Shown in pieces: positions 1 through 7,648 of a DNA stretch of 7,648 nt. Positions within the stretch are counted from its first letter, which is position 1; each line of letters begins with the position of its first letter. The position numbers and the translations under genes were made by a program. The notes beneath the pieces were generated by a model. That model saw nothing but the letters and a program-made list of their open reading frames with translations, was not told the DNA's origin and ran no database searches. The stretch comes from a virus. Where the stretch lies: the IMG/VR virus record IMGVR_UViG_3300029767_000164, positions 1 through 7,648 of that record. One strand, given 5' to 3'.

Positions 1-190
1 GACGTAAAATTAAATAACCGATTATAGCACCTAAAGGTTCCGTAATACCCGAAAAAAACGATACTATAAATGCTCTTTTTCTGCTGCCTGTTGAGTAGTA
101 TATTGGTACAGACGTAGCAATTCCTTCCGGAATATTATGGATTGCTATGGCGACAGCTATGGCAACAAGATACATAAGGTGGGTAAAAAG
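1..190 (-). CDS. zupT: ZIP-family zinc/metal transporter (ZupT-like), C-terminal fragment only; host gene interrupted by the element
   Basis: Minus-strand translation from 190 down to 2 reads [63 protein letters not shown] and runs off the left edge. The [10 protein letters not shown] ... PIYYxTGSRxxA ... SGxxEPLGAxxGYL pattern matches the second HNxPEG transmembrane block of ZupT/ZIP transporters. The frame is closed immediately upstream by TAA at 191-193, which is the recombinase stop, so the N-terminal half is absent here. Confidence 0.75.
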
Positions 191-1669
191 TTATTTATAA
201 TAGATTTTTAAGAAAATATCGCCCTCGGGAGCGGATTTTTCACGTTTATATTCAATTTTTTTCACAAAATTTTTAAGAATAGAATTTTTTTCAGCGGCTG
301 AAAGAGAGTTGTAATTGGTGAGAAGTTCACGCAAAAGGGGGAGGCGTTCTTCGATGGAAGAAGTATCTACAAGTTTAAATTTTTCGCGTTCCTGTGCTAT
401 CGTGGCATTAATTTTCTTTCGTCTATCCGAAATTGCGTTATTGCGTTCAAGAAAAAGTTCCTTTGTATACACTGCCTGTTCAAGCAAGTCATACAGGCGG
501 AGTTGTTGTTTATCAAGTTTTTTTAATTCTGTTTCCAAAGTGGCTATTGTATCAAGACAAGAAAGTTTATCCTTATTATGCGATTGACGGATATTTTTTA
601 AAGACAATTCAATATCTTTAAATTCCTTTGTAAGCACTTCAAATACCTTATCTTCTACAATACTTAATGCAGAGGCTTTATTACAACCAAGTGTACGGCA
701 ACAAAGACGGTATTTTTCAACGGTTTCGTTAGAAGTATTGATAACTATTGCCCGACCGCAATTAGCACACTTTAAAAGCCCTGCAAACGGATTTTGCAAC
801 GTGCCTGTACGCATAGGCGGTTTATATTTCAGATTTATAATATCTTGTGCTTTGTTGAACGTGTCCTCGTCAATTATTGGCTCGTGCAGTCCGGGAACAT
901 ATAACCAATCATCTTTACTCGTTTTTTCTTGCGTATTTTTGCCTTTAACAGACTTTGATTTGTTCCACACTATTTTACCTATGTAAGTATGATTTCGGAG
1001 CATACGGGCGATTGTGGTGGGGTGGAGCGGTGTATTTTTCTTGCTCAAGACACCCAAATTTGCAAGCTGACGGCTTATTGAAGTAATACCCATACTTTGA
1101 TTTACATACATATCAAATATCATACGAACATATTTCGCCTCCGGTTCATATACTTCCAACGTGTGCTTTTTATTTATTACGGCATTTCGATAACCAAACG
1201 GAGCACCCGACACAAAGCAACCGTCGTTGATTGATTTGATACGTCCGCGGTTCATTCGACGAGTGATGAATTTAAGCTCCTTACGAGCCATAAACATTTC
1301 AAATTCACTGTAATCTTCGTCATACTCGTTGTTGAGGTCATATATTTTTTTGAGCGTAATAATTTTTACATCGTTTTCTTTAAGAACGTCAAAGATTTTT
1401 TCACTGTCTGCGGCACTTCCACGCCCTAAACGGTCAAGGTCAATACATAATACCGCATCATATATGTGCGAGGGAATAGCGTCAAGCAGTTTCAGCATTT
1501 CCGTTCTGTTGTATAACATTCCTCCGCTTATCACTTCTTCAAATATGTCAATGACCGTTAAATTATTGTCCTTTGCATAAGAAAGAAGAATTTCTTTGTG
1601 ACGTTCAAGCGTTTCAAGCGGATTGTTTTCGTCCGCTCTCGATTTTCGTAAATACATGGCTACATTCAT
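191..1669 (-). CDS. Large serine recombinase (phage integrase)
   Basis: 492-aa ORF. The N-terminal resolvase-type catalytic domain has the YLRKSRAD motif (nucleophile Ser10, Arg8) and DLDRLGR. A central recombinase domain is followed by a Cys4 zinc ribbon (CANCGR ... CCRTLGC) and a C-terminal coiled-coil-like region (LETELKKLDKQQLRLYDLLEQ). The SD is AAAGGAAG, 7 nt upstream of the ATG at 1669. Confidence 0.95.
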   Translation of the reverse strand: MNVAMYLRKSRADENNPLETLERHKEILLSYAKDNNLTVIDIFEEVISGGMLYNRTEMLKLLDAIPSHIYDAVLCIDLDRLGRGSAADSEKIFDVLKENDVKIITLKKIYDLNNEYDEDYSEFEMFMARKELKFITRRMNRGRIKSINDGCFVSGAPFGYRNAVINKKHTLEVYEPEAKYVRMIFDMYVNQSMGITSISRQLANLGVLSKKNTPLHPTTIARMLRNHTYIGKIVWNKSKSVKGKNTQEKTSKDDWLYVPGLHEPIIDEDTFNKAQDIINLKYKPPMRTGTLQNPFAGLLKCANCGRAIVINTSNETVEKYRLCCRTLGCNKASALSIVEDKVFEVLTKEFKDIELSLKNIRQSHNKDKLSCLDTIATLETELKKLDKQQLRLYDLLEQAVYTKELFLERNNAISDRRKKINATIAQEREKFKLVDTSSIEERLPLLRELLTNYNSLSAAEKNSILKNFVKKIEYKREKSAPEGDIFLKIYYK

Positions 1670-1705
1670 CGTAAATCTTCCTTTCTTGTGTTATATTTCA
1701 ACTCA

Positions 1706-1735
1706 CACGCTCCGTGGGGAGCGTGACACATGTGT
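1706..1735. promoter_or_regulatory. Perfect 8-bp hairpin followed directly by a 10-bp palindrome, upstream of the integrase gene
   Basis: CACGCTCC (1706-1713) pairs with GGAGCGTG (1718-1725) around the loop GTGG. It is followed directly by the self-complementary ACACATGTGT (1726-1735). Function is unknown. Confidence 0.3.
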
Positions 1736-1758
1736 ATAAATGCACTTTATTCTGTTTC

Positions 1759-1792
1759 CTCTGCCTGTTGGAGCAGGCAGGGAAATTTTTTT
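1759..1792. terminator. Hairpin plus T-run between the zinc-ribbon gene and the integrase gene; orientation ambiguous
   Basis: The stem is CTGCCTG (1761-1767) with CAGGCAG (1774-1780) and a 6-nt loop, and a T7 run lies at 1786-1792 on the plus strand. For the minus-strand genes the U-tract is on the wrong side: an A-run precedes the stem. It is therefore only a canonical intrinsic terminator for plus-strand (antisense) transcription. Confidence 0.3.
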
Positions 1793-1794
1793 AT

Positions 1795-2031
1795 TTAAGC
1801 TGCGGTATCAATATAATCAATAACTGTTACGGTTAAGGTGCTTGAAAAAGTTTTCACGCTATCAAGAATTTTTTCAAGGGTTTCAACTGTTTCATTAGAA
1901 AAATATTCTTCTCCGCATTGTGTACATTTTTCGCAAGGTACATTTTTAATCACAACAACGAAATTATCAATTTTTTCAATATATTCTGTTGTTGTCTGTT
2001 CTGCATTGCCTCGGCAAAAGAAACAAGTCAT
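1795..2031 (-). CDS. YgiT/MqsA-N-type zinc-ribbon protein without an HTH domain (putative antitoxin, copy 1)
   Basis: 78 aa with CxxC (CFFC) near the N-terminus and NVPCEKCTQCGEEY later, the YgiT-type zinc-finger pattern. The start ATG (2031-2029) lies 1 nt after the stop of the upstream DUF4258-like gene (TAA-t-ATG). The SD AGGAGAG is embedded in the upstream gene's 3' end. Confidence 0.85.
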   Translation of the reverse strand: MTCFFCRGNAEQTTTEYIEKIDNFVVVIKNVPCEKCTQCGEEYFSNETVETLEKILDSVKTFSSTLTVTVIDYIDTAA

Positions 2032-2032
2032 A

Positions 2033-2353
2033 TTATTTCACTCTCCTTGTTTTAAAATCATTTTCCCATTTATCCGGTTCGGGATAGTATGCGGTTACAG
2101 CATACAAATATTCTTCATCATAGCCTGTTACATTATGCAACGGCATTTGTTTAAGACTTTGACCGCAAATTAAACAACTTGGAAGTCTTGCTGACTGTGG
2201 ATAGTGTTCGATTATTTCGCCTGTGAAAATACTGTTTTTGTAATCATCTTTAGATATATTACGTTCACGCAAACGCTTAAATGCGTGAAGTGACCATTTT
2301 ATTTGGTCTGATTCACATCGTTTTCGCACTTCTTCAATATCTATTTCTTTCAT
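2033..2353 (-). CDS. DUF4258-like protein (putative toxin, copy 1)
   Basis: 106 aa carrying LHAFKRLRERNIS, GEIIEHYP, PLHNV and a C-terminal WENDFKTRR. I recognise these motifs as the DUF4258 family, and they are shared with the paralog at 3154-3483. The SD AGGAGGG lies 6 nt upstream of the ATG. Confidence 0.85.
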   Translation of the reverse strand: MKEIDIEEVRKRCESDQIKWSLHAFKRLRERNISKDDYKNSIFTGEIIEHYPQSARLPSCLICGQSLKQMPLHNVTGYDEEYLYAVTAYYPEPDKWENDFKTRRVK

Positions 2354-2380
2354 TTGTATCCCTCCTTTGAATATTCATTG

Positions 2381-2406
2381 CGATTTTGTCAACGTCAACA
2401 AAATCG
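2381..2406. promoter_or_regulatory. Inverted repeat in the AT-rich gap upstream of DUF4258 copy 1; candidate operator or RNA hairpin
   Basis: CGATTTTGT (2381-2389) pairs with ACAAAATCG (2398-2406) across an 8-nt spacer that lies within a tandem GTCAAC GTCAAC (2388-2399). Further CGATTTTG / ATTTTGATA copies occur at 2466-2476 and 2449-2457. Confidence 0.3.
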
Positions 2407-2498
2407 TCAAAAATATAATTTTGAATTTGATTTATTAAAAATCGGTTATTTTGATAAATTAATTACGATTTTGATACATTTTATATATAAAAACCTCT

Positions 2499-2912
2499 TT
2501 AATACTCTGAATTTTTCAAATAGTCCATATGTCTGCGGTAACGTCTTGGGACGTTAATAGGCACGTCATAACCGATTTGTTTCAGAAATTCGGTTATAGC
2601 ATCAACACCGTCATTAAAAAATTCCGTTATACGTTTTTCTTTGTTAGTTATATTTTTGTAATTAGGCGGGCATACAAAAGTCCAATCCGCACCCTCGTTA
2701 TCAAAAATAATTCTAAAATATTCATCTATATTATATTTGTCGAGAGCCTTTGCCAATAATAAATGGTGTTCGCAACCCTCATCGAGTAATGAAACAACAG
2801 CGTGTGAGCGGTCGTGGGCAATGACTGCCATTAACGGCTCACTGTCGTGATTTATAAATTCGGTTTTCGTTTCATCACTACCGTAATATTTTATTATTTC
2901 CAATATCATCAC
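2499..2912 (-). CDS. Hypothetical protein, 137 aa, His/Cys-rich, no family recognised
   Basis: The ORF is long and protein-like and starts 12 nt downstream of zinc-ribbon copy 2. It has a His/Cys cluster (HDSEP ... HDRSHAVVSLLDEGCEHH ... FVCPP). The start is ambiguous among GTG 2912, ATG 2909 and TTG 2903, all behind AAGGAAG. Confidence 0.7.
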   Translation of the reverse strand: MMILEIIKYYGSDETKTEFINHDSEPLMAVIAHDRSHAVVSLLDEGCEHHLLLAKALDKYNIDEYFRIIFDNEGADWTFVCPPNYKNITNKEKRITEFFNDGVDAITEFLKQIGYDVPINVPRRYRRHMDYLKNSEY

Positions 2913-2918
2913 TTCCTT
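2901..2918 (-). repeat. 18-bp translation-initiation-region repeat, copy A (CAATATCATCACTTCCTT on plus; AAGGAAGTGATGATATTG on minus)
   Basis: Identical to 3472-3489. It covers the SD and first codons (M-M-I-L) of the 137-aa ORF. Confidence 0.9.
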
Positions 2919-2924
2919 ATAACA

Positions 2925-3152
2925 TCAAGCAACTTCCGAATAATTCAATTCAGCAATACCCGAAACAATATTTTTCACTTGGTTTATCAATTCTTGAATA
3001 CGAACAGAAACGTCGAATGAATATGATTTTTCGCCACATTGTGTACATACTTGAGTAGGCACGTTGTGTATAACAATAATGCAATTCCCTAAATCTGCAA
3101 TATAATTTGTAAGCTTATTTTCTGTACTTGATTTACATAATAGACATTTCAT
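2925..3152 (-). CDS. YgiT/MqsA-N-type zinc-ribbon protein without an HTH domain (putative antitoxin, copy 2)
   Basis: 75 aa with CLLC and NVPTQVCTQCGEKS, alignable over its whole length with 1795-2031. The start lies 1 nt after the upstream stop (TAA-a-ATG). Confidence 0.85.
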   Translation of the reverse strand: MKCLLCKSSTENKLTNYIADLGNCIIVIHNVPTQVCTQCGEKSYSFDVSVRIQELINQVKNIVSGIAELNYSEVA

Positions 3153-3153
3153 T

Positions 3154-3483
3154 TTATAAACCCTTCTTTCTTGTTTTAAAGTCTTTTTCCCATTCTATAT
3201 TATTCGGGAAATATTCTGTTATTATCCAAACAACATCTTCTCCTATGGCACAAACTATGTGTATATATTTTTCGCTTGATGTTTTACCGATTACGAGGAA
3301 GCTTTTGTATGGATAATCATTTGGATATTCTTCGATTATTTCGCATCGCTTTAATGCCGGAAGTATATCGGTAAGAATATCTATCGAACGTTCGTTAGCT
3401 CGTTTTAATGCGTGGTCTGTCATTTGTATCTTGTGTGCTTTACTTAGGTTGTGAATTTGTTCTAATTCATTCAATATCATCAC
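3154..3483 (-). CDS. DUF4258-like protein (putative toxin, copy 2)
   Basis: 109 aa carrying DHALKRANERSID, CEIIEEYP, YIHIV and WEKDFKTRK, which makes it a paralog of 2033-2353. The same start ambiguity applies (GTG 3483 or ATG 3480). Confidence 0.85.
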   Translation of the reverse strand: MMILNELEQIHNLSKAHKIQMTDHALKRANERSIDILTDILPALKRCEIIEEYPNDYPYKSFLVIGKTSSEKYIHIVCAIGEDVVWIITEYFPNNIEWEKDFKTRKKGL

Positions 3484-3489
3484 TTCCTT
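3472..3489 (-). repeat. 18-bp translation-initiation-region repeat, copy B
   Basis: Identical to 2901-2918, in direct orientation, 571 bp apart. The two copies bracket exactly the copy-2 DUF4258 plus zinc-ribbon pair. Confidence 0.9.
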
Positions 3490-3533
3490 GTTTTATATTT
3501 CTAAAAAATACAATTTGTTAATCTGTATAAATA

Positions 3534-4178
3534 TTAAAAACCGACTTTACATTCAACTACTTTTCCTACTATCTCAACATCGTCTTGTTTTAAGTCATAA
3601 ATTTGTGTTTGATGTTCGGGGTTATAAGATTGAGGCATAAGCATAACAATATTTTTCTCTTGCTTAAAGCGCTTTATCGTAAAAGTGTCATGATTAATGC
3701 GAACAGCGGCAATTTCGCCGTTTTCAACTGTTGGTTGTACGCGAACAGTTACAAGACTTCCGTCGGGAATGTTTGCGGCGGTCATACTATCGCCCTTTAC
3801 TTTTAAAGCAAAATATTTACCACCATGATTTAATTCTGTATAAGTATATCCCTCATAATTTTCTTCCGAAAATATCGGTAATCCTGCCGCAATATCTCCT
3901 AAGATAGGTATTCTGTGCATTACAGGATTGTATGGGACTGCTCCGTCGGGTAATGGCGGAAGTTCTTTCATTGGTACATCTTCTCCCATTAACCAAGGTA
4001 TAGAAACATTTAGAATATTTGCGTAAGTATCTAATCGTTTTTGCTTAGCTACATATTTACCTGATTTGTATTGACTCATTACACTTTCAGGAGTATCTGT
4101 AAGTCTGCATAATTCAGCGGCGCTCATACCATTATATTTTAAAGCCTCTTTTAAGCGCTCGGCAAATGTAGATTTCAT
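3534..4178 (-). CDS. Phage CI-like repressor: XRE-family HTH plus S24 (LexA/CI-type) self-cleaving peptidase domain
   Basis: 214 aa. The N-terminal HTH is LKYNGMSAAELCRLTDTPESVMSQYKSGK. A LexA-like AA-G cleavage motif lies in ILGDIAAGLP. The catalytic Ser is in KGDSM and the Lys in TIKRF. The gene is divergent from a Cro-like gene. Confidence 0.95.
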   Translation of the reverse strand: MKSTFAERLKEALKYNGMSAAELCRLTDTPESVMSQYKSGKYVAKQKRLDTYANILNVSIPWLMGEDVPMKELPPLPDGAVPYNPVMHRIPILGDIAAGLPIFSEENYEGYTYTELNHGGKYFALKVKGDSMTAANIPDGSLVTVRVQPTVENGEIAAVRINHDTFTIKRFKQEKNIVMLMPQSYNPEHQTQIYDLKQDDVEIVGKVVECKVGF

Positions 4179-4201
4179 TTTATCTCACCTCTCTTACAAG
4201 T

Positions 4202-4230
4202 ATTATACAATAAACTTTGCAAAAACGCAA
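4202..4230 (-). promoter_or_regulatory. Leftward promoter for the repressor gene
   Basis: On the minus strand: TTGCGT (-35, plus 4225-4230), a 17-nt spacer, then TATAAT (-10, plus 4202-4207). The SD AGAGGTGAG follows, then the ATG at 4178. An ACTTTGCAAAA half-operator (4214-4224) lies in the spacer. Confidence 0.6.
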
Positions 4231-4270
4231 TATTTATTTTGAAAAAAATAAAAAAACTTTGCAAAACCTA

Positions 4271-4299
4271 TTGACTTTGCAAAACCAAAGTGTTATAAT
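4271..4299 (+). promoter_or_regulatory. Rightward early promoter for the Cro-like gene
   Basis: TTGACT (4271-4276), a 17-nt spacer, then TATAAT (4294-4299). It is followed by the SD AGGAGGTG (4321-4328) and the GTG start at 4334. Confidence 0.75.
4274..4291. promoter_or_regulatory. Operator O1: ACTTTG-CAAAAC-CAAAGT palindrome overlapping the rightward promoter spacer
   Basis: Perfect 6-bp inverted half-sites separated by 6 bp, lying between the -35 and -10 of the rightward promoter. Confidence 0.6.
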
Positions 4300-4300
4300 G

Positions 4301-4318
4301 ACTTTGTAAACACAAAGT
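4301..4318. promoter_or_regulatory. Operator O2: ACTTTG-TAAACA-CAAAGT palindrome just downstream of the -10
   Basis: Same half-sites and spacing as O1, and covers the predicted transcription start region. Additional ACTTTGCAAAA half-sites lie at 4214-4224 and 4256-4266. Confidence 0.6.
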
Positions 4319-4333
4319 GTAGGAGGTGTTAAA

Positions 4334-4582
4334 GTGTACAATTATAGCAAGCTTTTAGGTAGAATTAAAGAAAAAGGTTTTACTTTAGAAGCATTAGCAA
4401 AGAAAATAGGTCTTAATGTATCTACTCTAAGCAAGAAACTCAACAATAAAAGCGAATTTCATCAAGATGAAATTAAAAAAATATGTAGAGTGATTGATAT
4501 AGAAATGTGTGATATAGGAACTTATTTTTTTTGCCAAGAGACTTTGGTTTTACAAAGTAACGTAGGTAATATAAGAAAGTAG
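4334..4582 (+). CDS. Cro-like early regulator, DUF739-type HTH protein
   Basis: 82 aa. YSKLLGRIKEKGFTLEALAKKIGLNVSTLSKKLNNKSEFHQDEIKKICRVIDI ... YFF matches the pattern I recognise for DUF739 phage regulators. The start is a GTG 5 nt after AGGAGGTG. The last 16 codons run through operator O3 and repeat copy 1. Confidence 0.85.
   Translation: MYNYSKLLGRIKEKGFTLEALAKKIGLNVSTLSKKLNNKSEFHQDEIKKICRVIDIEMCDIGTYFFCQETLVLQSNVGNIRK
4541..4558. promoter_or_regulatory. Operator O3 (distal): ACTTTG-GTTTTA-CAAAGT palindrome inside the 3' end of the Cro-like gene
   Basis: A third perfect copy of the half-site pair with the same 6-bp spacing, about 250 bp downstream of O1/O2. Confidence 0.5.
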
Positions 4583-4585
4583 GTG
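4560..4585 (+). repeat. Start-associated repeat, copy 1 (ACGTAGGTAATATAAGAAAGTAGGTG)
   Basis: The 25-nt core CGTAGGTAATATAAGAAAGTAGGTG is identical in all three copies. It has stop codons in all three plus-strand frames and ends in AGAAAGTAGGTG, one mismatch from the ideal anti-16S complement AGAAAGGAGGTG. A start codon follows 5-7 nt later. Confidence 0.9.
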
Positions 4586-4592
4586 AGGAAAT

Positions 4593-4751
4593 GTGGAAAG
4601 TGTGCAAAAACAGATTGCAAAATACATTGATAATAAAGGTATAACAATCATGCACATATCTCAGAAGACAGGAATAACATATGAGCTATTAAGATTATCA
4701 TTAAAAGCAAATCGTAAAAAAACAAGCACACAGCAAAGACTATGTGCTTGA
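4593..4751 (+). CDS. Small XRE-type HTH protein (52 aa), possibly C-terminally truncated
   Basis: Not in the ORF track because it is under 60 aa. The GTG at 4593 (alternative GTG at 4602) gives (M)ESVQKQIAKYIDNKGITIMHISQKTGITYELLRLSLKANRKKTSTQQRLCA. The IAKYID-KGI ... ISxKTGI ... L pattern is a typical short phage HTH. It sits 7 nt after repeat copy 1. An A7 run at 4716-4722 precedes an atypical tail. Confidence 0.5.
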   Translation: MESVQKQIAKYIDNKGITIMHISQKTGITYELLRLSLKANRKKTSTQQRLCA

Positions 4752-5009
4752 AGAAAAATAAATATAGAGTTTCACCGAATTTACGGAGTGCAAACTATAC
4801 GTTACCGTATAGCAGGGCGATATTGTCACCTCGTTAATTGAATTATATTCAGACTTGAGTTGCTTAACGGCAGAATCAAGTACTGAATCATTGAATGGTT
4901 TAATTACATCTTGTATCTTTGAAAGTGATGGATATTGTGTTGAATCAAGTGGTTTAGACATTGTTGCTATTCCTGAAAGTCTGATTTCATCGTTTTTAAT
5001 CGTAGACAT
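4740..5009 (-). CDS. Hypothetical 89-aa ORF (weak call)
   Basis: The sequence is more protein-like than the overlapping plus-strand ORF 4855-5055. However, the SD is poor, the C-terminal tail is low-complexity, and no homology was recognised. Confidence 0.3.
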   Translation of the reverse strand: MSTIKNDEIRLSGIATMSKPLDSTQYPSLSKIQDVIKPFNDSVLDSAVKQLKSEYNSINEVTISPCYTVTYSLHSVNSVKLYIYFSSST

Positions 5010-5023
5010 CCAATTTGTTACTC

Positions 5024-5167
5024 CGAAAAATCGTGGTTATGTCATTTCTGCATAACTCTCATAGTCGCCTATGAGTTCAGACTGTGCCTTCAACCTGTGG
5101 GAAAGGTTGCTCCGTGTCCAGTCGTTACACCTCCCCGTAGTGGGTTTGGCTCGGCGTTGTCTATATT
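5024..5167 (-). ncRNA. Candidate structured RNA or 5' leader transcribed leftward from the 5174-5202 promoter
   Basis: A GC-rich island in AT-rich surroundings. Hairpins: CTCATAG/CTATGAG (5058-5064/5069-5075); CAACCT/AGGTTG (5091-5096/5104-5109) nested inside GACTG/CAGTC (5080-5084/5119-5123); and GTTATG/CATAAC (5036-5041/5051-5056). On the minus strand the last hairpin is followed by a U5 run (plus A5 at 5024-5028). No ncRNA class was recognised. Confidence 0.3.
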
Positions 5168-5173
5168 TATTAC

Positions 5174-5202
5174 ATTTTAGCACAATATGGTTATTTACGC
5201 AA
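5174..5202 (-). promoter_or_regulatory. Leftward extended -10 promoter (cassette A)
   Basis: The minus strand reads TTGCGT - 17 nt - TAAAAT, with TGc immediately upstream of the -10 (TGcTAAAAT). Confidence 0.55.
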
Positions 5203-5209
5203 GAACAAA

Positions 5210-5240
5210 AATCGACGTAGGTAATATAAGAAAGTAGGTG
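5210..5240 (+). repeat. Start-associated repeat, copy 2 (AATCGACGTAGGTAATATAAGAAAGTAGGTG)
   Basis: This 31-nt sequence is identical to copy 3. The ATG at 5247 follows after 6 nt. Confidence 0.9.
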
Positions 5241-5246
5241 GGAATT

Positions 5247-5378
5247 ATGAAAGATGAAAAAATAATTTTTGAAGTATCGGTAAGTAAAAAAGAACTATCT
5301 AAACTATTAGATCCGTTACAGACAGTTCTTTTAAATGGAATATTAGAAAAGTTGGCAAATGCTATTTCTTCTCAATAA
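5247..5378 (+). CDS. Small hypothetical ORF, 43 aa
   Basis: MKDEKIIFEVSVSKKELSKLLDPLQTVLLNGILEKLANAISSQ. It starts 6 nt after repeat copy 2. The first 16 nt (ATGAAAGATGAAAAAA) nearly match the start of the ORF after copy 3, and a GAAGTATCGG (EVS) block is shared. Confidence 0.45.
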   Translation: MKDEKIIFEVSVSKKELSKLLDPLQTVLLNGILEKLANAISSQ

Positions 5379-5533
5379 AGGTTTTGTGATACTCATTAAG
5401 AATGTCTAAAGTAACACTTGCAGATGTTTGTTTCATAAGTAATGCAAAATTAGTATAGGGATCACATTCATCCGGAGTTTTACTATACTTCTCTAATATG
5501 ATTTTAGAAAATTCTTCAAAAGACGTTGACATT
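5362..5533 (-). pseudogene. Small leftward ORF with an ideal promoter, SD and ATG, but a stop after 5 codons; the +1 frame continues for 52 codons
   Basis: AAGGAGGTG is followed 6 nt later by ATG (5533-5531). The reading is ATG TCA ACG TCT TTT TGA. Shifting +1 on the T5 run (plus A5 at 5518-5522) gives MSTSFEEFSKIILEKYSKTPDECDPYTNFALLMKQTSASVTLDILNEYHKTFIEKK (56 aa), ending at TAG 5364-5362. Confidence 0.4.
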
Positions 5534-5556
5534 ATAATCACCTCCTTCCGAGATGA

Positions 5557-5584
5557 TTATAGCACAAATGGTTAAAAAATACAA
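5557..5584 (-). promoter_or_regulatory. Leftward extended -10 promoter (cassette B)
   Basis: The minus strand reads TTGTTT - 16 nt - TGcTATAAT. The block TAACCAT(A)TTGTGCTA(A/T)AAT is shared with the cassette A promoter. Confidence 0.55.
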
Positions 5585-5613
5585 TCGACGTAGGTAATAT
5601 AAGAAAGTAGGTG
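5583..5613 (+). repeat. Start-associated repeat, copy 3
   Basis: Identical 31-mer to copy 2. The ATG at 5620 follows after 6 nt. Confidence 0.9.
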
Positions 5614-5619
5614 AGAAAA

Positions 5620-5781
5620 ATGGAAGATGAAAAAGAAAATGAATTAAAAGATGAACTAAAACTGCTGGCAATGCCATTAATCAAATTTCTAAAAGAAAAT
5701 TATAATCCATATTGCAAAGTAGAAGTATCGGAAAAAGGTGTAAAAATAGTTGGAGATGTTTGCTTAATACCAATTAAATAA
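5620..5781 (+). CDS. Small hypothetical phage protein, 53 aa
   Basis: MEDEKENELKDELKLLAMPLIKFLKENYNPYCKVEVSEKGVKIVGDVCLIPIK. It has a strong SD supplied by the repeat and a plausible small alpha/beta protein sequence. Confidence 0.6.
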   Translation: MEDEKENELKDELKLLAMPLIKFLKENYNPYCKVEVSEKGVKIVGDVCLIPIK

Positions 5782-5839
5782 GGTACAAAGTAATAGGACA
5801 AAAAATGAAATACATAGATTAAAGCAGGAGGTGGAAATC

Positions 5840-6073
5840 ATGGAGGCGGAAAAGACCAAAAAGGCAAGAAAGCCGAGAAAGCAACCTAAAGTACACGTTG
5901 AAGTGGTAGGCAGTTGGAAAGACAGACCCGCTTATGAACAGTTTCAGCATTGGAAACCTCATATAGAAAATATGTATCATATGCTTGGGTATGGTGACGT
6001 AACGGTTGAGCCGTCGCAGGAGATGATTGACGAGTACAATGCTATTCAAGCAAACAAGGAAAAAGGAGCTTAA
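5840..6073 (+). CDS. Hypothetical protein, 77 aa, basic N-terminus
   Basis: The ORF track starts this ORF at GTG 5831, but that GTG lies inside the SD AGGAGGTG (5826-5833). The ATG at 5840, 6 nt downstream, is the likely start: MEAEKTKKARKPRKQPK... Confidence 0.7.
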   Translation: MEAEKTKKARKPRKQPKVHVEVVGSWKDRPAYEQFQHWKPHIENMYHMLGYGDVTVEPSQEMIDEYNAIQANKEKGA

Positions 6074-6093
6074 TGCTCCGAAGATAGGACAAG

Positions 6094-6194
6094 CTCACAG
6101 GCAGACAAGGGCTGTCCGCGTATTATCCGTAAAATAGTTAGACTTTCCCTAAGAGTTTTAATCCTTTTGCGGACAGTTCCTGTGTGCCTGTGAG
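6094..6194. other. 101-bp long imperfect inverted repeat (26-bp arms, 49-nt loop)
   Basis: CTCACAGGCAGACAAGGGCTGTCCGC (6094-6119) pairs with GCGGACAGTTCCTGTGTGCCTGTGAG (6169-6194). 22 of 26 positions are complementary, including perfect 10-bp outer and 8-bp inner blocks. No T-run follows. Confidence 0.6.
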
Positions 6195-6216
6195 GTAAGA
6201 GAAATGAGGAAAACAA

Positions 6217-6330
6217 ATGAACACAATAGGAATTGCGCTGATTAGTTTCGGTATCGGACTAATCATAAGTTGGAAATTGGCAGAAAGGGACATAAAAAAT
6301 GCTAAAAAGAAAACCAAAAACAGAGAATGA
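6217..6330 (+). CDS. Small membrane peptide, 37 aa (one TM helix plus a Lys/Arg-rich tail)
   Basis: MNTIGIALISFGIGLIISWKLAERDIKNAKKKTKNRE. The SD GAGGA lies 6 nt upstream. Not in the ORF track because it is under 60 aa. Confidence 0.5.
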   Translation: MNTIGIALISFGIGLIISWKLAERDIKNAKKKTKNRE

Positions 6331-6412
6331 GAAAACGGAAGAATATTTCCACAGAGAAGTATTTCCGATGATTAACGCATTCGCCAAGGAGTGCAGAGGA
6401 CACGCAAAATAG
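6299..6412 (+). CDS. Small hypothetical ORF, 37 aa (weak), overlapping the previous ORF by 32 nt
   Basis: MLKRKPKTENEKTEEYFHREVFPMINAFAKECRGHAK. The SD is weak (GGGA). The overlap region is full of A-runs. Confidence 0.3.
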   Translation: MLKRKPKTENEKTEEYFHREVFPMINAFAKECRGHAK

Positions 6413-6440
6413 AAAATAACAGTGAAAGGAATATTTTCAA

Positions 6441-6611
6441 ATGAACAAATATGTAATAATGACGGGCAGAGATGATGTAGTGGTTTTAAACGCCGATGAC
6501 AACAAGTCGGTTAAGGCATACATAGCAAAAGGATACGGCATAACAAATCGTATCAAGTCAAAGCACCCGCTTGAAATGAGTGTTGCGAAGATTATCAGTG
6601 GAGATAATTAA
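6441..6611 (+). CDS. Small hypothetical protein, 56 aa
   Basis: MNKYVIMTGRDDVVVLNADDNKSVKAYIAKGYGITNRIKSKHPLEMSVAKIISGDN. AAAGGA lies 10 nt upstream. Confidence 0.55.
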   Translation: MNKYVIMTGRDDVVVLNADDNKSVKAYIAKGYGITNRIKSKHPLEMSVAKIISGDN

Positions 6612-6617
6612 ACGGCT

Positions 6618-6899
6618 ATGACGAAATACGAATTTGACGATTGGGCGTGCATAGACGAGGACTTTGCTTGTCGTGATGACGACTTCGCCTGTATCGACGA
6701 TGATTGGGCGTGCATAGATGATGATGACGCAGTATGCGACGATGAACGCGACGGACTTACGGAAGAAGAAGCCGACGCATACGAAAAGGAAAAAGCGTGG
6801 TATGACCTATTCAAAGAGGTATTGCAGTATCCGTACAGTTACGGATTATCTTGGGGAATAGTTTTAGCATACAGACAACCTATAAAATATCAGAATTAG
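6618..6899 (+). CDS. Extremely acidic protein (93 aa) with a Cys-containing heptad repeat
   Basis: The N-terminal 59 residues include 26 Asp/Glu against 5 Lys/Arg. A D-[WF]-A-C-[IR]-D-[DE] unit occurs four times, followed by a degenerate DDAVCDD. The C-terminal part is aromatic and hydrophobic (YPYSYGLSWGIVLAY). Confidence 0.75.
   Translation: MTKYEFDDWACIDEDFACRDDDFACIDDDWACIDDDDAVCDDERDGLTEEEADAYEKEKAWYDLFKEVLQYPYSYGLSWGIVLAYRQPIKYQN
6639..6743 (+). repeat. Five in-frame tandem 21-bp units encoding the heptad repeat
   Basis: Unit 1 is GATTGGGCGTGCATAGACGAG and unit 4 is GATTGGGCGTGCATAGATGAT; they differ at 2 of 21 positions. Units 2, 3 and 5 are more diverged. Confidence 0.85.
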
Positions 6900-6911
6900 G
6901 AGGTGAGAAGT

Positions 6912-7061
6912 GTGGCAGATGAGAAAACGGCGGAAATACTGAAATTGTATAGCGATTTAACACCGAATGAAAAGCATTTGGTAGGTGTTTTCGTAAATGC
7001 GATGATACTTAGTCGCAATAAAAATGACCGTCAGAGCGGCAACTCAATAACGGTCAAATAA
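6912..7061 (+). CDS. Small hypothetical protein, 49 aa
   Basis: The GTG start lies 6 nt after AGGAGGTG (6898-6905). The product is (M)ADEKTAEILKLYSDLTPNEKHLVGVFVNAMILSRNKNDRQSGNSITVK. Confidence 0.55.
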   Translation: MADEKTAEILKLYSDLTPNEKHLVGVFVNAMILSRNKNDRQSGNSITVK

Positions 7062-7065
7062 AAGC

Positions 7066-7086
7066 ACATAGATTATTAATCTATGT
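7066..7086. other. 21-bp palindrome / hairpin (9-bp arms, 3-nt centre)
   Basis: ACATAGATT att AATCTATGT, lying between two plus-strand genes. No U-tract follows. Confidence 0.4.
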
Positions 7087-7118
7087 CAACATTATATCAC
7101 AGAAAGGAATAAAAATCA

Positions 7119-7487
7119 ATGCAAATTGTAATTAGGCTTGAACAGAAAGATTTTGAGGGTAACAAGGAAGTATTCGACCGAATGTACGGATTATGTTCGG
7201 TACTCAACAAAAAGACGGGACCTGTGGAGATGACAAAGGCGGAAGTTGAGAAATCGGCGAACGTTGTAAGAGAGGAACAGACGTCAGACGATACGCCGAC
7301 AGAGGATAATACCGCCGAAGTGGAATACACAATAGAGGAAGTACGCAAGGCATTCGGTGAATATGCGAAGTCGCAGGGCAGAGATAAGGCCAAGGGACTG
7401 CTTCAAGAAATGGGTTACGACAAAGTAACGGAAATACCGCCTGAGCGATACACAGAGGCGATGACGAGAATAGGAGATGTGAAGTAA
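7119..7487 (+). CDS. Hypothetical phage protein, 122 aa, acidic centre
   Basis: This is the longest ORF in the region and its codon usage is consistent with neighbouring plus-strand genes. Its stop overlaps the next start (TAATG at 7485-7489). Confidence 0.8.
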   Translation: MQIVIRLEQKDFEGNKEVFDRMYGLCSVLNKKTGPVEMTKAEVEKSANVVREEQTSDDTPTEDNTAEVEYTIEEVRKAFGEYAKSQGRDKAKGLLQEMGYDKVTEIPPERYTEAMTRIGDVK

Positions 7488-7648
7488 TGCCGGAAGAACA
7501 CGCAAAACTCTCGGCGTCGGGGTCAAAGAAGTGGATAAACTGCCCCGCGTCAATCGCAATGGAAAGCAAATTCCCCGACGAAAGCAGTGAATATGCAAAA
7601 GAGGGAACTACCGCACATTCATTGGGTGAGGCAAAGCTGAAATTAGCT
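7487..7648 (+). CDS. PD-(D/E)XK nuclease-superfamily phage protein (DUF2800-like), N-terminal 54 codons; continues beyond the window
   Basis: MPEEHAKLSASGSKKWINCPASIAMESKFPDESSEYAKEGTTAHSLGEAKLKLA. The HAxLSASGSxxWxxCPxS ... YAxEGTxAH pattern is the N-terminus I recognise for DUF2800 phage nucleases. The frame is open to the end of the window. Confidence 0.7.
   Translation, partial: MPEEHAKLSASGSKKWINCPASIAMESKFPDESSEYAKEGTTAHSLGEAKLKLA

Follow-up and report, generated by a model that had tools for sequence, protein, structure and literature searches.

Two diverged copies of a two-gene module, each made up of a gene for a DUF4258 protein followed by a gene for a small YgiT-type zinc-ribbon protein, were found on the minus strand of a 7,648-nucleotide (nt) stretch of viral DNA (IMG/VR record IMGVR_UViG_3300029767_000164, positions 1 to 7,648; hereafter the window). 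We consider it likely that the modules are MqsRA-like type II toxin-antitoxin cassettes, in which a BECR-fold endoribonuclease toxin (T1, T2) would be paired with a zinc-ribbon antitoxin (A1, A2). The proteins belong to the corresponding families and show the corresponding folds, the paired genes are adjacent and diverge together, the cassettes have definable borders and are present in some and absent from other near-identical phages, and both occupy a prophage position between a CI-like repressor gene and an integrase gene. The two modules comprise the following genes:

3154..3474, minus strand: T1, DUF4258 putative endoribonuclease toxin (BECR fold, RelE/MqsR-like), 106 amino acids (aa); PF14076, E = 7.2e-20
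2925..3152, minus strand: A1, YgiT-type zinc ribbon, putative antitoxin, 75 aa; TIGR03831, E = 8.1e-12
2033..2353, minus strand: T2, second DUF4258 putative RNase toxin, 106 aa; PF14076, E = 6.4e-19
1795..2031, minus strand: A2, second YgiT-type zinc ribbon, putative antitoxin, 78 aa; TIGR03831, E = 4.1e-12

All four proteins scored above the curated cut-offs of the families to which a preliminary description, made from the DNA letters alone, had assigned them. T1 and T2 matched PF14076 with 71.5 bits (profile positions 1-68 of 71) and 68.5 bits (positions 1-70 of 71), respectively, at a gathering cut-off of 25 bits. The same profile was matched by all 25 aligned toxin homologues, none of which matched MqsR_toxin (PF15723) even at E values up to 10. 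A1 and A2 reached 45.2 and 46.2 bits with the NCBIfam model for the YgiT-type zinc finger (TIGR03831; cut-off 20.2). Against the full-length MqsA models they remained under the cut-offs, with 19.4 and 22.5 bits for TIGR03830 (cut-off 61.8) and 18.2 and 16.8 bits for PF15731 (cut-off 30), and they covered only positions 1 to about 65 of the MqsA profiles. Pfam and NCBIfam profile searches revealed no helix-turn-helix (HTH), ribbon-helix-helix (RHH) or AbrB domain in A1 or A2. In PHROGs, the zinc ribbons matched only a family of 'unknown function', and the toxins had no match.

In pairwise comparison, T1 and T2 were 32-33% identical (E = 7e-18), and A1 and A2 33-34% (E = 6e-17). The motifs shared by the copies had been read largely correctly in the preliminary description: HA[LF]KRxxER, EIIExYP and WExDFKTR are present in both toxins, and CxxC...CTQCGE in both small proteins, but the spacing in NVP-x3-C-TQCGE is three residues and not four as first given. 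A1 and A2 contain four cysteines each. In an alignment of 31 zinc-ribbon sequences, C6, C36 and C39 were invariant, and C3 was present in at least 90%.

DUF4258 has been catalogued, as PF_DUF4258, among 13 families of BECR-fold toxins of toxin-antitoxin systems (Gerdes 2025, PMC11980606). In that entry the family has about 6K members, its target is listed as unknown and references are absent; 17 natural DUF4258-MqsA fusions are reported. The same source calls the family 'undescribed in the literature', in line with the initial remark that its mechanism had not been worked out experimentally. RefSeq labels the pair as a DUF4258 domain-containing protein and a type II toxin-antitoxin system MqsA family antitoxin, or alternatively labels the partner a YgiT-type zinc finger protein. 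Because the family is catalogued and the partner already carries the MqsA-family label, the locus is a fresh example of a known, experimentally untouched toxin-antitoxin family, and the novelty first attributed to it was set too high. Our locus shares with the catalogued family the Pfam assignment, the BECR-fold toxin and the link to MqsA seen in the fusions. It differs in gene order, which is antitoxin/toxin in the table of PMC11980606 but toxin/antitoxin in every locus examined here, as in a survey of E. coli in which the partners of DUF4258 lie strictly downstream, the same as for MqsR (PMC10790755). Neither a prophage slot nor tandem diverged cassettes nor cassette borders are described in PMC11980606. 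What the present work adds is modest, namely cassette borders at translation-initiation repeats and a polymorphic cargo slot between repressor and integrase.

The coordinates and strand first assigned to the genes were borne out by the open reading frames (ORFs). Direct reading confirmed that toxin and antitoxin genes are joined as TAA-n-ATG in both modules, and placed the Shine-Dalgarno (SD) sequence of each antitoxin gene within the 3' end of its toxin gene. Relatives were sought by the patterns WExD[FY]KTR and IIEEYP in one genome per GTDB species. The scan returned 393 relatives, mainly from Clostridia (Monoglobus, Oscillospiraceae, Lachnospiraceae) and some from Treponema and Synergistaceae. 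A zinc-ribbon gene (CxxC...CxxC, same strand) lay directly downstream of the toxin gene in 82 of 82 loci (80 loci kept and 2 from contig look-ups), so that the toxin-first order and the adjacency proposed for the window hold throughout. The gap between the two genes was -4 to +6 nt in 80 of 81 measured pairs. The partner proteins of all 81 measured pairs were 74-88 aa long, which leaves no room for an HTH domain. Co-divergence of the partners was evident from 104 unique pairs, for which the identity matrices of toxins and antitoxins correlated with r = 0.80, a value reached in 0 of 999 Mantel permutations.

The AlphaFold2 (AF2) model of T1 (predicted local distance difference test, pLDDT, 91.9) contains helices at residues 5-14, 22-31 and 35-44, a short strand at 18-20, and strands at 47-52, 60-66, 72-80 and 83-90, followed by a tail. 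Residue conservation was evaluated on 25 toxin sequences with identities down to 31%. In the helix 22-31, H23 and A24 were invariant, and R27, E30 and R31 were conserved in at least 90%. H74 in the strand 72-80 was invariant, as were Y90 and P92 past the last strand. W97, T103 and R104 were invariant in the tail, which falls outside the Pfam domain PF14076, and E98, D100 and K102 were conserved there in at least 90%. T1 and T2 both retain every invariant residue.

Foldseek searches of the PDB with the T1 model returned MqsR as top match (3hi2_D, E 1e-2, probability 0.99, template modelling (TM) scores 0.47/0.54). The best geometric match was 7vd7_A, an unnamed toxin of a Salmonella toxin-antitoxin system (TM 0.58/0.65, root mean square deviation 2.2), and BrnT was also among the top matches, followed by HigB2, RelE and YafQ. 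The A1 model (pLDDT 90.2) consists of the MqsA-N fold only and matched 3hi2_A, 3gn5 and 3ga8 with probability 1.0 and TM 0.61-0.68. These entries cover MqsA-N alone, MqsA-N complexed with MqsR, and full-length MqsA. The suggestion that the small protein is an MqsA-N-like domain devoid of HTH is thus supported by TIGR03831, the AF2 model and Foldseek alike. As T1 matched the MqsR chain and A1 the MqsA-N chain, two separate models point to the two chains of one complex, 3HI2. Searches of BFVD yielded uninformative fold matches.

Compared with MqsR/MqsA of E. coli (3HI2, 3GN5), the modules have the same order, with the toxin gene first and the antitoxin gene second, and MqsR and the N-terminal zinc ribbon of MqsA are the top fold matches of toxin and partner, respectively. 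The four cysteines form two CxxC knuckles, as required by the YgiT finger model. The partner differs from MqsA in that it is without the C-terminal HTH domain, fails the full-length MqsA models and offers no possibility of autoregulation. The toxin differs from MqsR in belonging to PF14076, in its two invariant histidines and in having no MqsR sequence match, with TM scores of 0.47-0.54. To our knowledge, MqsR does not use two histidines in this manner. BrnT/BrnA (3U97), HigB2, YafQ and RelE resemble our toxins in their compact BECR fold and are among the best fold matches, and BrnTA is likewise toxin-first. Their antitoxins, however, are of the RHH or HTH type and not zinc ribbons, and there is no sequence similarity to them.

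Several observations weigh against a reading of the modules as MqsRA-like toxin-antitoxin cassettes. The fold matches of the toxin and its partner are weak (E 1e-2 to 1e-1, TM 0.47-0.65), and PDB sequence searches with T1, T2 and two profiles labelled A1 and A2 established no sequence-level link to any solved structure; matches that did appear, such as repeat-amplified ones to designed Kelch proteins, were rejected as spurious. We take the fold matches as evidence on fold and architecture, not on family membership. The complete adjacency is limited to the WExD[FY]KTR/IIEEYP subfamily, and other DUF4258 proteins have HicB-like partners, encoded upstream. PADLOC-DB v2 contained no defence model matching T1, A1, T2 or A2. 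Finally, one related contig (L085) carries an in-frame deletion of 57 nt in A1 (L085 1801-1971, corresponding to about 3006-3062 of the window), which removes 19 aa and with them the second zinc knuckle NVPTQVCTQCGEKSYSFDV, and the adjacent T1 is intact and identical to that of the window. The deletion, if real, implies that T1 is tolerated without its full cognate antitoxin. It may have arisen in assembly, or else it may mean that A2 cross-protects or that the toxin is weak.

The L085 contig also bears on the view that one or both modules have decayed or become attenuated, with a toxin harmless at the expression levels of the lysogen. An intact T1 beside an A1 without its second CxxC knuckle speaks for this view. 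On the other side, T1 and T2 have kept all invariant residues and both antitoxins their four cysteines, the island is 97-99% conserved across several independent metagenomes, and the deletion comes from one contig that may be misassembled. We regard decay as quite improbable.

A further point on the contrary side is a recent preprint (bioRxiv 10.64898/2026.08.28.747851), which places DUF4258 (= Ntox49) in a colicin-like branch of BECR nucleases, mostly tRNases. On this basis the toxin might be a colicin-like nuclease of the tRNA anticodon or acceptor stem, of Ntox49 lineage, with the zinc ribbon as its immunity protein. Characterised members of the branch cut tRNA with a catalytic histidine on the pre-alpha helix, and invariant H23 lies at the start of helix 22-31, on the helix before the core as in colicin D/E5-like tRNases and Ntox49. 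In addition, DUF4258 makes up one of the CdiA-CT toxin classes of E. coli, with the annotation 'tRNase (?)'. However, all Foldseek matches in the PDB were members of the RelE superfamily (MqsR, BrnT, HigB2, RelE, YafQ), and no colicin, neither D nor E5, was among the top 50. The preprint itself defines the RelE-like topology by a pre-beta strand, a pre-alpha helix, the core and a conserved C-terminal extension. The T1 model fits this description, with pre-beta, pre-alpha, alpha, beta1-4 and conserved tail. Moreover, the partner is MqsA-N-like and does not resemble a colicin immunity protein, and T1 and T2 are stand-alone cytoplasmic proteins of 106 aa without the delivery domain of colicins. 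The modelled topology therefore seems to fit RelE-like toxins better than the colicin-like placement, with either mRNA or tRNA as possible substrate, and we judge a colicin-like tRNase with an immunity protein rather unlikely.

The borders of the cassettes became apparent from comparison with related viral loci (numbered L001 and so forth). The features concerned are the following:

3472..3489, minus strand: 18-nt direct repeat, copy 1, AAGGAAGTGATGATATTG, left border of module 1
2901..2918, minus strand: 18-nt direct repeat, copy 2, AAGGAAGTGATGATATTG, right border of module 1
2499..2903 (2499-2912 in the ORF list), minus strand: U, 134 aa, between both modules
2354..2498, minus strand: leader of module 2, 145 nt, missing along with T2-A2 in L174
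3534..4178, minus strand: CI-like prophage repressor (HTH and S24 peptidase); Pfam Peptidase_S24, E = 6.8e-27, and HTH_19/26/3
191..1669, minus strand: large serine recombinase (integrase), far border of the cargo slot; Pfam Resolvase, Recombinase, Zn_ribbon_recom
1759..1782, strand not assigned: stable GC-rich hairpin at the boundary of cargo slot and integrase; terminator scan, RNA fold z = -3.15

The ORF of T1 was listed at 3154-3483, with GTG 3483, ATG 3480 and TTG 3474 as candidate starts. TTG 3474 is the most likely start judging from the sequence, because the SD core GGAAG precedes it by 8 nt, GTG 3483 and ATG 3480 being too near to the SD. T1 would then be a protein of 106 aa with the N-terminus (M)NELEQIH, and in both respects it agrees with its homologues (MNELEQIH, MSELEQIH). 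Similarly, translation of U from TTG 2903 gives 134 aa beginning with (M)EIIKYYG..., and relatives have MDIIKYYG. The repeat AAGGAAGTGATGATATTG consists of this SD, the spacer and the TTG, and occurs in two identical minus-strand copies, 3489..3472 and 2918..2901, whose start-to-start distance of 571 nt is exactly T1 plus A1. The locus L147 is 91-98% identical to the window on either side, has the order repressor-U-T2-A2 and possesses a single copy of AAGGAAGTGATGATATTG and no module 1, indicating that cargo was exchanged exactly at a translation-initiation sequence. The start and ribosome-binding site of T1 in the window are those serving U in L147. At the insertion point of module 1, L149 carries a different cargo gene of 1.27 kb.

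Module 2 varies in a comparable manner. L174, about 95% identical to the window in the U region and about 96% in the integrase region, is without window positions ~1794-2497, i.e. the 145-nt leader, T2 and A2. The hairpin at 1759-1782 is kept in L174 and is probably a terminator or insulator of the phage backbone, outside the cassette. L159 and L168 have a third diverged DUF4258/zinc-ribbon allele at the position of module 2. Among IMG/VR contigs with a U 96-99% identical to that of the window, the slot between repressor and integrase held U alone, U with T2-A2, or T1-A1, U and T2-A2. Tandem copies were encountered in three independent instances, namely in the window lineage, L005 and L079, and shared only 30-41% identity. 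Modules 1 and 2 are separately acquired, independent cassettes, since slot variants carry neither, module 2 only, both, or a third allele. The preliminary description had presented the modules as duplicated; local duplication in situ is ruled out by L147, L174, the slot variants and the low identity of tandem copies. Among GenBank phages, neither the DNA of the window nor T1, the latter searched by tblastn, had a match.

The product of the L149 cargo gene (4180-5349) has 389 aa. Its N-terminal part includes a transmembrane segment, RKAELVERIKE is a SAP-like motif in it, and its C-terminal part contains PPFHKGCRC, which presumably resembles phage MuF-type domains.

Gene U, overlooked in the preliminary description, is an independent cargo gene of the repressor-integrase slot with no obligate toxin-antitoxin partner. 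The gene is known here from 99 representatives. Of 55 viral loci that carry U, only 11 also have a toxin gene, and the other 44 do not. Fusions of U were heterogeneous, one with four HTH_3 repeats and others resembling mis-assemblies. A role as third toxin-antitoxin component was rejected on account of these fusions and the 44 loci without the pair. U had no match to any Pfam, NCBIfam or PHROG family, and a PADLOC match to Cas8a (E 1.3e-3) was judged spurious. Conserved motifs of U are EHHILL, ADWTFxCP and IPxRYRRH, and in many viral contigs the gene is placed right behind the repressor.

Regarding expression, the island is on the lysogenic side, as a Cro-like DUF739/HTH gene begins at 4334 in the divergent direction. 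As originally described, the island lies directly behind the repressor, and a simple scan of the minus strand detected nothing terminator-like from 3534 to 3483. Given this, transcription of module 1 probably continues from the repressor operon, to which a weak promoter-like TTAACA-18-TATAAA, read by eye in the 59-nt spacer between repressor and T1, may add. Module 2 probably has its own promoter, as a promoter scan found TTGACG-16-CAAAAT at 2410..2383 in its leader. The same leader contains the motif CAAAATCG at 2377-2388, 2399-2410 (inverted) and 2462-2473, thus three times within 97 nt, together with the inverted repeats I7 and I8 of the repeat search. Three exact copies of the extended form CAAAATCG(Y)(M)A(W) surround the promoter-like site ahead of T2, one of them in inverted orientation and the other two direct; by chance, the window as a whole should contain about 0.9 matches with one mismatch. 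The triplet may be an operator; its motif is distinct from the ACTTTGCAAA repeats in the intergenic region of repressor and cro. Rfam and tRNA scans gave no matches.

The repressor/cro intergenic region (4205-4320) carries four half-sites of the ACTTTGCAAA(A) type (repeats D5 and D16, palindromes I9 and I16). Amid these half-sites lies a near-consensus plus-strand promoter, TTGACT-17-TATAAT (4271-4299). The half-sites are probably the immunity operators.

By analogy with characterised systems, we infer toxicity, RNase activity, neutralisation by binding and the physiological role of the modules. The proposed setting is a variable cargo slot between repressor and integrase of a temperate gut-Clostridia phage, with transcription in the lysogen. 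The toxin would be a metal-independent endoribonuclease using His23 and His74, probably by two-histidine acid-base catalysis, aided by Lys/Arg residues of the first core helix and of the conserved, K/R-rich C-terminal tail. It would halt translation through cleavage of mRNA or tRNA. The antitoxin gene is probably translationally coupled to the upstream toxin gene, and its zinc ribbon would bind and block its own toxin, as MqsA-N does with MqsR. As the antitoxin is without HTH, transcriptional autoregulation would be absent and control left to the prophage promoters.

As to what the modules do for phage or host, the preliminary description spoke of a defence island. We found this to be overstated, as the PADLOC check revealed no system and the evidence fits addiction or selfish behaviour equally well. 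Among 68 IMG/VR loci, of which many contigs re-sample a few lineages, an HTH/S24-type repressor ended at most 150 nt upstream on the same strand in 45, so that the position behind the repressor recurs beyond the window, and an integrase lay within 4 kb downstream in 33. Among 78 genome loci, such neighbours were present in only 20, as judged with a limited profile set. This concentration behind the repressor, together with the exchange of diverged alleles among near-identical phages, is reminiscent of defence or exclusion genes, and a role in anti-phage abortive infection can be put forward as a tentative assignment.

The same molecules could equally serve prophage addiction or stabilisation, or the persistence of a selfish cassette, with any defence being incidental. 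A stable RNase would outlive the antitoxin upon loss of the prophage or cassette, and cured cells would be killed or arrested. Consistent with such a role, the pair occurs outside phages. It stands alone amid chromosomal housekeeping genes. Plasmid occurrences included one small plasmid on which it lies directly beside ParA, and RefSeq annotates the identical two-gene layout on Butyrivibrio pNP144. The lack of a PADLOC match and the gain and loss of cassettes between near-identical phages would likewise suit a selfish element. Against this stand the accumulation of viral pairs directly behind the lysogeny repressor (45/68) and the swapping of at least three diverged alleles at one slot, which is typical of defence and superinfection-exclusion cargo; neither is decisive. 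Taken together as persistence by addiction or selfishness, this explanation is doubtful, as is addiction or stabilisation as the role proper, and a purely selfish cassette is less probable still.

Alternatively, the modules might not be toxin-antitoxin systems at all. DUF4258 could be a regulatory RNase in the manner of RegB of T4, a phage-encoded RelE-like RNase known from the literature, or a counter-defence protein, as a preprint on haloarchaeal viruses speculates for viral DUF4258 proteins, and the zinc ribbon its cofactor or specificity subunit. However, the genes follow the repressor on the lysogenic strand instead of being placed among the lytic genes, the pair is also found on plasmids and chromosomes, it is dispensable in near-identical phages, and the partner matches a known toxin-binding domain. 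This explanation appears extremely improbable, and we retain the toxin-antitoxin assignment.

A more far-reaching version of that assignment, which strikes us as unlikely in its entirety, would make the HTH-less cassettes a diversifying family of prophage abortive-infection systems tied to the CI operon, with stacked, insulated alleles and a RelE-like scaffold bearing a two-histidine, colicin-like site that targets tRNA. In that event protection would be broadened or backed up by the stacked alleles (two here, a third in sister phages).

Among the Pfam families of BECR toxins of toxin-antitoxin systems, DUF4258 is one of the last to be without experimental description, and its target and fold branch are disputed. 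The locus offers a natural test set, with two diverged cognate pairs, sister phages that contribute a third allele, and isogenic backbones without one or both cassettes. Here, cassettes have been exchanged precisely at sequences of translation initiation. The locus also suggests that under the control of prophage promoters an MqsA-type antitoxin may function with its DNA-binding half missing. Current concepts are left unchanged by this well-defined example of a predicted family.

The wider DUF4258 family appears to swap partners. In another prophage (L001, 6583-6792), a HicB-like antitoxin gene lies right after a DUF4258/zinc-ribbon pair and before a tyrosine integrase, and a DUF4258 gene of Synechocystis has HicB as its partner; it is these two arrangements that suggest partner swapping.

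Two minor observations concern the plus strand of the window. Leaders of the form ACGTAGGTAATATAAGAAAGTAGGTG...ATG, about 32-61 nt long and 88-97% identical, precede three small early ORFs of the lytic strand (4560-4591, 5215-5246 and 5588-5619). Start-associated sequences of this kind are known from some phages, and the leaders may constitute a second series of boundaries for recombination or translation control. Further downstream, the product of the ORF at 6618-6899 contains a tandem repeat that is acidic and rich in Cys and Asp (DDWACIDED / DDFACIDDD), with the corresponding DNA repeats at 6636-6724.

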